This document shows positions 1 to 3,000 of a DNA stretch of 64,000 nucleotides, one piece after another. Every line of letters begins with the position of its first letter. Position 1 is the first letter of the stretch. Position numbers: made by a program. This stretch comes from Escherichia coli (GTDB lineage Bacteria > Pseudomonadota > Gammaproteobacteria > Enterobacterales > Enterobacteriaceae), in NCBI RefSeq assembly GCF_041248615.1, contig NZ_CP158425.1. One strand, written 5' to 3'.

Positions 1-3000
1 AAAGTGCTTAGCGTTGAACTCGCCCATTACCGGGGTCAGGGGGCTCTTACAACCTGGGCAGGTGTAAGTATGTGAGCGCAGGGCAGCGCCAATGTGCGTG
101 AGGGTGCCCTCGTCGTCTAGCGCGTAAGCGTATTGTATTGAGCTGGATTGAGTTGTCATGACTGCGTAGCCTCCCAAAAAAATCCAGCTAAGAACAGACC
201 TTACGACAGGGAAATGGTAAGTAGTGCTTCTTGAAGCAGTCGAGTGTACAGCGGCTCAGTGAAAAAGCTAATCGCCCGCTCAACAACCTAGTGATACTGG
301 TGCAGATTCGACAATGAGTTAATGCCCGGAGAGCATCTGCAAGACTTCTAGCTGGAAGGCATTCCAACCAGCCCTCGCTTCTGAAAAGCCGTCAGGAAAC
401 GGTAAAATCCAACCAAGTGAGCAACTTCACTTGATCAAAGATCTAAGGCTAGAATGATGGAATTACAACCTTAGTTTGCAAATAGCCAATTTTTCAAACT
501 TTGCTTACTTTGTCAAGGAAGGTGACCGCAGTAGCAGGCACAACTACTTTAATCTGTATGAATAATAAGGTAGAACCGGCCAGTGAATGAATGCTTACCC
601 TGAAATCAGGCGGACAACCTTCAGGAATATTGATAGCAAGACTGAATCTCTCGCTGCGGCGATAAACATTTCGCCATAACCCTGAACGAGAGTGGTTCAT
701 CCATCATATACAGGAGCGTTACATGCGCAAATTTAAGTACATAATCTGTCACCAGTCCTGACCAAGGTCCTTTCGCCCGGGATGTTAGGTTGAATTGCTA
801 CGGGCGATGTGTTGTCACCGGCGTAAGGTCCCCCTGGCGTACTGAGGCCGCGCACTTAACGCCACGTCATGAAGAAGGCATTCCCGACGTAACGAACGGA
901 ATTTTACTTCGCCGTGATATCCATACACTGTTCGACAATGACCATTGCGCCATAAACCCTGACACTATGAAAATTTACTTCAGCCGGGAGGCCCGGGAGT
1001 TGGATGATGATCTCCTGAAATGGCATGGGAATGAGATAGAGACGACACGCATGCAGGTTCCGGTTAACATCGAAAACCTTCGGATACGATGGCAAAAATT
1101 TAAGGCTAAGGATCGTCAGCGTAAATAAAGCCATAAGCTGAACCACGGCGAGGATTAGTCTTGTTCACTAAATGACAGCGAGAGATTAAATGCAAACCCA
1201 AAAAGAAATTACAGTTGGCCAGATCTGGGAAGAAGTGGATCCAAGACTGATCCGGAAAGTGCGGGTTGTTGAGGTGGCCTCGTTAGAAGGGCCCAAAGGC
1301 ATCCTTATCGAAAACGTGGAGTCTGGTCGTAAGAACTGGGCGTCGTCATCCCGCTTTAATGGAAAGCGTGGAGGGTATCGTCTTATTTCCTGACGGTTTT
1401 GCCAATATGGGAAACTGAAGAGGTTGAAACCATCCCGGTGAGGGAGCATATCTGGTAAAGAAGAGTCTTTAAAAAGGTTTTACGCGACCTGGGATAATAA
1501 ACGGGAAAACGATACCCAAAAAAAGAATACAGCGATGATAACGATAAGGAATGGTAAGGGCTTCAATATTTTGAGAAATGCCCTGGCTTCCTTTGCATCT
1601 GCATTTCTAATCAAACTGTCCACATAGGGATCACAGCTCTTAGGTTCTGAATTTTTCATATGTTCTGTACCTGAAATTGATTCCGTATGAGAAAAGGCCA
1701 CCGAAGTGGCCTCTATCAAAACTGGTGGCAAAAGTTAGATCAGGAAATCATCAAGACTTTTACCGGCTGCAATTTGTTCTGCCAGAGCTTTGGGGGTACG
1801 GCCCTGTCCAGTCCACGTTTTTGTTTCGCCATTTTCATCAGTAAATGAGTATTTGGCCGGGCGTGGTCCACGGCTTTTCTTGGTAGCCGTAGATTTGGCC
1901 TGGAATGAGCCAAGCAGCTCTTCCGGGTTGATACCATCTTCTTCCATTAACTTACGCAGGGCGTCAAGTTTCTCCTGACGAGCTTGCAGTTCGGCAGCTT
2001 TGGATGATTCTTCCTGACGACGCTCATCAACAATGACATTAAGCTTTTCGAGGATTTCCTCAAGTACTTCTAAAGGCAGCTCGCGGCCCTGGGCGCGAAG
2101 AGTACGAATATTGTTTAACGATTTGAGTGCTTCAGACATACGACCCCACTTTCTAATTCTTTGATAAGGATTTACTTAATCATAATACACTCTATAAGGA
2201 AAAAGATGCCAGCTTTATGTCTTCAGGTACAAAGATATCTTGCTAAGAATACTCCTTATCTTCCTTGTGCAGACTGTTTCGTGCTTTCGATGTTGTTCAT
2301 GAGTCTTAAAATCTGCTCACTGTTTAGGGTACTCATGCTGTAAATCAGCAAGAAGGAAGCGCAGAACAACATAAGCAATCGGAAAAGGAAACCATGCCAG
2401 TGACAGGCCATATATAGCGGAGATAAACATAGGGTAATTTAACTCACTTACAAAATTCGCTTCATTGTATTGTTGAATCGAAATGGCAGAAGCAAAAATT
2501 ATAATTAAAGTAAGAAAAATCCACTCTAGCCATCTCTTTTTATAACAAGCATAAGCGAAAGCTGTAGGGTAAAAAATAAAGCAAAAAAATTCCAGCTGCA
2601 ATTACGTTCATAAAAGTAACTTTCCTGATAGCGCCGTTATTTTTCGAATGCAGTATCATGAACAACTGCCATAACATTGATGATTGGCTTTCTTTTTCTG
2701 AAGAACCTTCCGCGCGGCAAAGTTTCTCCCGCTTTGAGACGATAAAGCCAGAAAACATAAGCCGGAGGAACATTGCTGTCAAAAATATCTGAACAAGTTT
2801 GAACTGTGATGCCTACTGTATTGTCTTTCCTCATCTCTTTAAAAGTGCCTTGCAATGCAGCGGATAACGTCATTTTTAAGAAACCTTTTTTCTGTTTGAA
2901 CGGATAGACTTGACTTAGCTGGCTTGACTGTAATGTTTGCCACTAAAGATCCCTCGTTCTGAGGATGCAGGCACTACAAAGTTACCGTCAGGTCTAATCA

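Follow-up and report, generated by a model that had tools for sequence, protein, structure and literature searches.

The short HNH endonuclease reading frame at one end of an IncHI2 plasmid region is very probably the 3′ remnant of a longer nuclease gene left by a 776-bp deletion

The stretch of Escherichia coli DNA analyzed here (64,000 nucleotides of contig NZ_CP158425.1, referred to throughout as the window) is IncHI2 plasmid backbone, and near its left end a short open reading frame (ORF) that begins at a TTG codon encodes part of an HNH endonuclease. The question raised by this locus is where that ORF came from and whether it is still a gene. An earlier note on this DNA had read it as the surviving end of a decayed paralogue of a 429-residue HNH protein encoded near the other end of the window, had taken the ORF-free region upstream of it (160-789) for the remains of the N-terminal domain, and had regarded the two genes as an inverted duplicate pair. 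Both ORFs exist as that note described them (790..1128 on the plus strand, 112 codons with a TTG start, and 61615..62904 on the minus strand, 429 codons), and the small one is indeed the surviving end of a longer HNH gene. The nature of that gene and the way in which it was lost are different, however, and we propose that window 745-1128 is very probably what remains, at the 3′ end, of an IncHI2 backbone gene encoding a nuclease of 283 or 285 residues (WP_225517698/WP_000784387), left by a deletion of 776 bp.

The evidence comes from the comparison of plasmid alleles. In a DNA search with window 100-1200, many IncHI2 plasmids match in two pieces separated by some 776 additional bases, and other IncHI2 plasmids match only from 745 onward. 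The full-length gene that the earlier note had suggested looking for at this position in related plasmids is present in pYLMB15a, pEC-IMPQ, and pSAL4578-1. Specifically, pYLMB15a (L005) equals the window plus 776 bp, with window 1-756 corresponding to L005 2902-3657 (100%) and window 745-3896 to L005 4422-7573 (99.8%), and the sequences of window 1-756 and 745-1500, which align to either side of the additional segment, overlap by 12 bp. The 12-mer TCTGTCACCAGT, the longest exact direct repeat of that region, is present in two copies 776 bp apart in pYLMB15a (L005 3646-3657 and 4422-4433) and in one copy in the window. In-silico removal of the 776 bp from L005 gives window 1-1500 with one mismatch, at 1306 and so outside the remnant, and both pEC-IMPQ and pSAL4578-1 show the same structure relative to the window. 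The segment removed connects the HNH gene with a small gene immediately upstream of it, termed gene A here, and the features that result in the window are as follows.

Window 723 to 761, plus strand: stump of gene A, MRKFKYIICHQS followed by a stop codon (tblastn of gene A).
Window 745 to 756, plus strand: deletion junction, with the single remaining copy of TCTGTCACCAGT (comparison with pYLMB15a).
Window 745 to 789, plus strand: retained but untranslatable codons 159-173 of the HNH gene, SVTSPDQGPFARDVR (tblastn of the 285-residue protein).
Window 790 to 1128, plus strand: 112-codon HNH ORF with a TTG start, WP_223231361 (ORF call, RefSeq, Pfam).

This arrangement very probably arose by a single deletion between the two 12-bp direct repeats, and its pattern is what replication slippage or microhomology-mediated deletion would be expected to leave. 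Such routes, by which bacteria lose DNA between short direct repeats, are a general mutational mechanism, and the present case is like them in having exact 12-bp repeats 776 bp apart in the parent, one copy kept, and no other change; nothing about it is unusual, and the event is read from the comparison of alleles. The left repeat begins at base 2 of codon 8 of gene A (codons 8-12) while the right one begins at base 1 of codon 159 of the HNH gene (codons 159-162), and because the two positions differ in phase the junction is out of frame. Lost to the deletion are codons 12-102 of gene A, the intergenic spacer, and codons 1-158 of the HNH gene. The deletion thereby fused gene A and the HNH gene out of frame, leaving the start of gene A to open an ORF of 12 codons (723-761) and the HNH frame closed by a TAA of gene A origin, with the TTG at 790 as the first usable start, from which annotation pipelines call the 112-residue protein.

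The remnant itself fits this account closely. By tblastn, residues 159-285 of the 285-residue protein align with window 745-1125 at 100% identity, and 790..1128 corresponds to codons 174-285 of the ancestral gene. The frame of position 790 reads ST, a stop codon, and SVTSPDQGPFARDVR before the L of the TTG and the following NCYGRC, and no start codon lies in 745-789, between the TAA at 742-744 and the TTG. The earlier note was right that HNH-like codons precede the TTG, since in tblastn the similarity runs 13 codons back, to 751, although it misread the leading I of that sequence. It was also right that the TAA is in frame, but this stop is not a nonsense mutation: it consists of the gene A codons TAC ATA ATC read in the HNH frame. 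On the gene A side, tblastn matched window 723-755 at 100% identity, and the stump comprises an ATG and 11 native codons, then an out-of-frame S and TGA, preceded by a good Shine-Dalgarno sequence (AGGAG, 712-716). Intact gene A (MRKFKYIICHQCEGHG..., WP_001224687; L005 3624-3932) encodes 102 residues with two DnaJ-like CxxCxGxG zinc-finger motifs and an Arg/Glu-rich tail, and in pEC-IMPQ (L002) it is followed after 15-21 bp by the HNH gene of 283/285 codons. We considered whether gene A might be a conserved partner of the nuclease, such as an immunity protein or regulator, and rejected this, as it has no counterpart by three nuclease homologues in other contexts: the small gene upstream of the homologue in L007 did not resemble gene A when the two were compared directly, and nothing like gene A was called upstream of those in L008 and L009.

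The long form of the locus is the ancestral one. This follows from three observations: both reading frames run unbroken through both copies of the repeat, relatives of 282-303 residues found elsewhere (41-75% identity) cover 93-100% of the 285-residue protein, and the 776 bp are without mobile-element features. The other contexts in which these relatives occur are an IncHI-like contig, a position beside a ter operon, and a Leclercia assembly with a matching metagenome contig, and the N-terminal domain is conserved among them. A segment that lies between direct repeats is formally compatible with the opposite history, in which the short form came first and the 776 bp are an insertion in the other IncHI2 plasmids with the 12-bp repeat as its target-site duplication. 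We find this scarcely credible, as the segment lacks both a transposase and terminal inverted repeats, the two reading frames that it completes continue in exact phase into the flanks on either side, and the 285-residue architecture is kept down to 41% identity in unrelated genomic contexts. Frequencies in PLSDB agree with this polarity, the gene being intact in the majority of related IncHI2 resistance plasmids: an 80-bp probe that spans the deletion junction has full matches in 268 records and its counterpart of uninterrupted HNH sequence in 685, while the whole region from gene A to the HNH gene is found in about 555. When hosts were surveyed in an evenly spaced sample of the PLSDB hit list, the deletion-type records were from E. 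coli or Salmonella in 10 of 10 cases and the intact ones from Serratia, Klebsiella, Enterobacter, E. coli, and Salmonella, a distribution that would fit one clonally inherited deletion event.

What, then, is the region upstream of the remnant, which the earlier note had taken for a decayed N-terminal domain? As judged by comparison with other plasmids, window 160-744 is DNA unrelated to the HNH gene and contains no degraded N-terminal coding sequence, since that sequence was cleanly deleted. Left of the gene A stump this region and its flank consist of three parts.

Window 1 to 159, minus strand: 5′ end of the 328-codon hypothetical gene WP_001572342 (annotation of NZ_CP020493).
Window 160 to 487, no strand assigned: upstream flank of a helicase module, not derived from the HNH gene (comparison with p10068).
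Window 488 to 722, plus strand: native non-coding region upstream of gene A, which includes DKHFAIT at 661-681 (plasmids with the intact locus).

WP_001572342 is the first gene of a two-gene module whose second gene, for a UvrD-like helicase, lies left of the window. The IncHI1 plasmid p10068 has a copy of window 100-494 (98% identity) by the same two genes, beside trhN, and plasmids with a different neighboring cassette part from the window at 487/488, with pEC-IMPQ and pSAL4578-1 matching only from 488. From there on, window 488-722 is identical (100%) to L006 4001-4235 and L005 3389-3623, upstream of the start of gene A. The weaker similarity that the earlier note saw in this part, between DKHFAIT and the AEFAIYA of the 429-residue protein, did not hold up, as a tblastn search with E values up to 100 and a word size of 2 gave a best E of 1.4 upstream of 745. 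We regard the resemblance as due to chance, given that the stretch precedes gene A in intact plasmids and falls outside any HNH coding sequence. Near DKHFAIT a repeat finder returned only 18-mers of 78% identity that share GCCATAA with two places inside the HNH gene. The same upstream region of gene A also contains an unannotated ORF of 68 codons (window 494-700, minus strand), which is present in pEC-IMPQ as well (L002 3007-3213) with two amino-acid differences and for which there is no evidence of a gene. An Rfam scan of window 1-2500 found no relevant RNA element.

The relation of the lost gene to the second HNH gene of the window can now be considered.

Window 61615 to 62904, minus strand: intact gene for the 429-residue HNH_2 protein (ORF call, Pfam, BLASTP).

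The 112-codon and 429-codon ORFs lie on opposite strands about 60.5 kb apart. A tblastn search of window 1-1500 with the 429-residue protein gives one significant alignment, of 751-1116 with residues 305-424 (46% over 122 aa, E 1e-31), and BLASTP of the intact 285-residue protein against it finds similarity between residues 150-280 and 296-424 alone (44% identity, E 8e-33), with no similarity between the N-terminal 149 residues of the one and the N-terminal 295 of the other. The C-terminal 130 or so residues thus contain what the two have in common, including the motifs RPDQxxF...NCxxxC...TEAAH...NG(L/I)LLR.DIH.LFD and a C-terminal helix, while the N-termini are unrelated, and that of the 429-residue protein (293 aa) belongs to a separate conserved family (P0027 at 49%; P0037, P0165, and P0031 at about 31-33%). 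An exhaustive search with the C-terminal module returned 3827 proteins at E <= 1e-3, and in the best 150 of these, which reach 657 aa in length, the module is C-terminal save in a few very short entries. The C-terminal HNH_2 module is a widely shuffled one. Among representatives of clusters at 50% identity, chosen by their similarity to the module of the 285-residue protein, the 429-residue protein ranks 32nd for the 285-residue module and the 285-residue protein ranks 47th for the 429-residue module; for each module, then, some 30 to 45 database clusters are nearer than the other module is, and the 429-residue protein is not the closest relative of the remnant. A blastn comparison between the gene of the remnant and that of the 429-residue protein found no significant DNA similarity.

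On this sequence evidence, the 285-residue and 429-residue proteins are distant relatives that share one nuclease module and not a duplicate pair, because their N-termini are unrelated, there is no DNA similarity, and they are not mutual nearest relatives. The idea that the remnant is a paralogue of the 429-residue protein that decayed in place by point mutations, the two forming an inverted duplicate pair about 60 kb apart, draws on the homology of the C-terminal modules (44-46% identity over 122-131 aa) and on the opposite strands of the two genes. We consider it very improbable. In addition to the distance between the modules just described, neither the 429-residue nor the 285-residue protein finds any similarity upstream of 745 by tblastn, the finding that the earlier note itself had named as the one that would refute its proposal. 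In plasmids whose locus is intact, the DNA upstream of and within the start of gene A is identical (100%) to window 488-744; window 160-487 is part of a helicase module that IncHI1 plasmids share; and the intact ancestor is a protein of 285 residues whose first 150 or so are unrelated to the 429-residue protein. To speak of an inverted duplicate pair therefore overstates the relation between two distant members of a large modular family.

The 285-residue protein combines an N-terminal domain of about 140 residues, modeled as a beta-barrel, with a C-terminal HNH_2 nuclease module of about 125 residues (Pfam, E 1.8e-12), and its AlphaFold2 model, with a mean predicted local distance difference test score (pLDDT) of 70.7, consists of a beta-rich N-terminal domain, a disordered linker (139-165), and the HNH domain. 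The best fold matches of the N-terminal model are PUA-superfamily readers of modified bases, from which we infer that the domain lost from the window may be a PUA-like barrel. In addition, a profile of the family matches VcaM4I (6yex) by sequence over the HNH region (E 1.1e-5); in sequence searches of the PDB the 285-residue protein alone gave no match and the 429-residue protein only noise, and only the family profile reached VcaM4I. Together with TspA15I and CmeDI, VcaM4I is an EVE-HNH enzyme, and these and the SRA-HNH enzymes TagI and ScoA3IV are modification-dependent (Type IV) restriction endonucleases that are independent of nucleoside triphosphates (PMC7897488, PMC6765204). The intact ancestor is like the VcaM4I/TagI type in being one polypeptide chain (about 285-310 aa) in which a predicted N-terminal beta-barrel precedes a C-terminal HNH domain of the PF13391 type (beta-beta-alpha-Me), in its family profile match and PUA-superfamily fold matches (from the model), and in having no adjacent methyltransferase gene. 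It differs in that no base-binding pocket was identified, the likeness coming from sequence and model.

By analogy, we propose that the intact ancestor may act in the manner of those modification-dependent (Type IV) restriction endonucleases that join a PUA-superfamily sensor to an HNH nuclease, a proposal to which we give about an even chance of being correct. Two points weigh against it, namely that the N-terminal domain has no Pfam match and that matches in PADLOC and NCBIfam are weak and confined to the HNH region. Indeed, Pfam, NCBIfam, PADLOC, and PHROGs have no family for the N-terminal domain of either the 285-residue or the 429-residue protein, and only the HNH region scored. The genes adjacent to the nuclease gene are gene A, a 67-codon hypothetical gene, and an H-NS gene, with no methyltransferase among them; a DUF4942 gene some 4 kb from it was left unassessed. 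Among the homologues in other contexts, one of 41% identity directly follows a terB-terC-terD-terD run and a TerD/vWA-TerF-like gene (L008 1-4855). Genes of the ter type are also carried by IncHI2 plasmids. In the Leclercia assembly GCA_036780805 (L009 3212-3622) the homologue lies about 380 bp downstream of a gene for a stand-alone ASCH domain, a member of the PUA superfamily. Of the papers that a full-text search returned on IncHI2 together with HNH endonucleases, one cites an HNH endonuclease only as a landmark near mcr-1, and the others, to judge from titles and abstracts, do not deal with this gene.

Is the 112-codon ORF nevertheless expressed? We consider it most likely that it is a dead remnant, because it has neither the native translation start nor any of the putative DNA-sensing domain, and a conserved helix is mostly gone as well. 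This helix leads into the nuclease core, and codons 159-173, which encode most of it (including the invariant Q165, F168, and V172), lie in the untranslatable part; in the AlphaFold2 model of the 285-residue protein the helix spans 168-175, and the ORF begins inside it, at codon 174. The family-invariant columns that are lost or untranslatable comprise F121, N122, G124, G130, G154, Q165, F168, and V172. The ORF has neither the complete domain, including the helix before CxxxC, nor the credible start that a stand-alone nuclease would have, and compared with enzymes of the VcaM4I/TagI type the copy in the window is without any sensor domain and is probably untranslated. Several observations weigh against this conclusion. 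The Pfam HNH_2 core (PF13391) in the 112-codon ORF is complete (residues 7-56, E 3e-13), with the conserved His, Asn, and Cys residues kept; 745-1128 does not differ from the intact alleles by a single nucleotide; promoter-like sites lie upstream of the ORF; and a well-initiated leader of 12 codons comes to its end just 28 nt upstream of the TTG. The lack of substitutions is uninformative, however, because the whole plasmid backbone is about 100% identical.

The complete core and the promoter-like sites, the annotation as a protein by RefSeq, and the persistence of the deletion allele in 268 plasmid records would all be compatible with a mini-HNH nuclease that has some retained or new activity and is made by re-initiation after the leader or from a weak ribosome-binding site, as would the catalytic activity that the HNH domain of VcaM4I shows in isolation (PMC7897488). 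Even so, we regard such a product as improbable. The start is a TTG with only a weak GGGA 8 nt upstream of it. In the profile alignment the ORF starts 6 residues before the Cys aligned with VcaM4I, whereas the active construct (179-309) starts about 28 residues before it, so that the conserved helix is missing here. Moreover, the isolated VcaM4I HNH domain is a non-specific nuclease that is too toxic to maintain in E. coli (PMC7897488); were the product of the remnant active, its stable maintenance by hundreds of plasmids would be hard to explain. That the same gene was independently truncated in another plasmid, R478, suggests that its loss is tolerated, in agreement with a dead remnant.

Losses of HNH genes are in fact recurrent in IncHI2 plasmids. 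In R478 (NC_005211), the IncHI2 prototype, the inverted-repeat end of a mercury-resistance transposon (…TTCTGAGACGACCCC) directly abuts the 285-codon gene at about codon 71 (L011 3277/3278) and leaves an annotated fragment of 202 residues (WP_000289256). This truncation, an allele found also in Enterobacter plasmids, is independent of the 776-bp deletion. A third HNH_2 gene, of 271 codons (WP_053276223), is present in pSAL4578-1 (L006 2193-3008) and absent from the window, the HNH module of its product being only about 31% identical to those of the 285-residue and 429-residue proteins, and in pEC-IMPQ (L002 1650-2009) the same mercury transposon end truncates it to an annotated fragment of 119 residues. 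The 429-codon gene is split by IS5 in pSH49-2 (L012 716-3204) into a 161-codon "HNH" ORF and a 258-codon "hypothetical" ORF, and ten further listed plasmids, with the same IS5 annotation and match span, probably share this insertion. ISKpn26, ISVsa5, or IS3-family elements occur within or close to the 429-codon gene in other plasmids. The recurrent losses may reflect selection or the simple dispensability of accessory genes. One speculative and rather unlikely interpretation is that the up to three modular HNH_2 nucleases of IncHI2 plasmids (271, 285, and 429 aa), with different putative sensors at their N-termini, would form a set of modification-dependent restriction enzymes that is selected against in some hosts, for example due to toxicity towards host DNA methylation. 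More remotely still, the sensor-less remnant might be made at a low level as an unregulated nuclease.

The plasmid setting of the locus is well sampled. Hundreds of E. coli and Salmonella plasmids (IncHI2A, about 210-290 kb, conjugative with MOBH) share window 1-2500 and 61400-63100 at 100% identity, and one of these, the identical plasmid pSE08-00436-1 (NZ_CP020493), served as the source of annotation. There, 790..1128 is labeled by RefSeq as WP_223231361, "HNH endonuclease signature motif containing protein", beside the 67-codon hypothetical gene and the H-NS gene, and on its left are the 328-codon hypothetical gene, which starts at window 159 on the minus strand, and the gene for an ATP-dependent helicase. 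The helicase module (window 1-487 and L001 1137-4159) encodes the 328-residue protein and then a UvrD/GajB-like helicase of 679 residues that matches GajB/UvrD models with an E of 1e-51. We considered a known defense system for this pair and assigned none, since in spite of the GajB/UvrD match the partner is not GajA. The module sits where other IncHI2 plasmids have a HipA toxin, two hypothetical genes, the 271-codon HNH gene, and a 141-codon gene, and it may be an uncharacterized defense cassette in a variable island. The distance between the two ends of the window varies from about 45 to 85 kb among plasmids. In the E. coli plasmid NZ_CP022165.1 the left end of the window matches the minus strand and the right end the plus strand, while in other plasmids both have the same orientation, which implies that part of the backbone of NZ_CP022165.1 is inverted.

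As broken genes go, the remnant is ordinary, and its plasmid family has been sampled very thoroughly; the main value of the analysis is corrective, for annotation and typing. The 112-residue WP_223231361, found in at least 268 IncHI2 plasmids, is a deletion stump that would be better flagged as a pseudogene, a flag that would also be apt for the HNH fragments of 202, 119, and 161 residues in R478, pEC-IMPQ, and pSH49-2. The three states of the locus, intact, with the 776-bp deletion, and truncated by the transposon, provide simple lineage markers for the epidemiology of IncHI2 plasmids. The intact 285-residue protein is a modest lead, as a putative, uncharacterized sensor-HNH enzyme that is encoded by a major family of multidrug-resistance plasmids and has been lost repeatedly, and if it is a true Type IV enzyme it would bear on which DNA the hosts of IncHI2 plasmids can accept.

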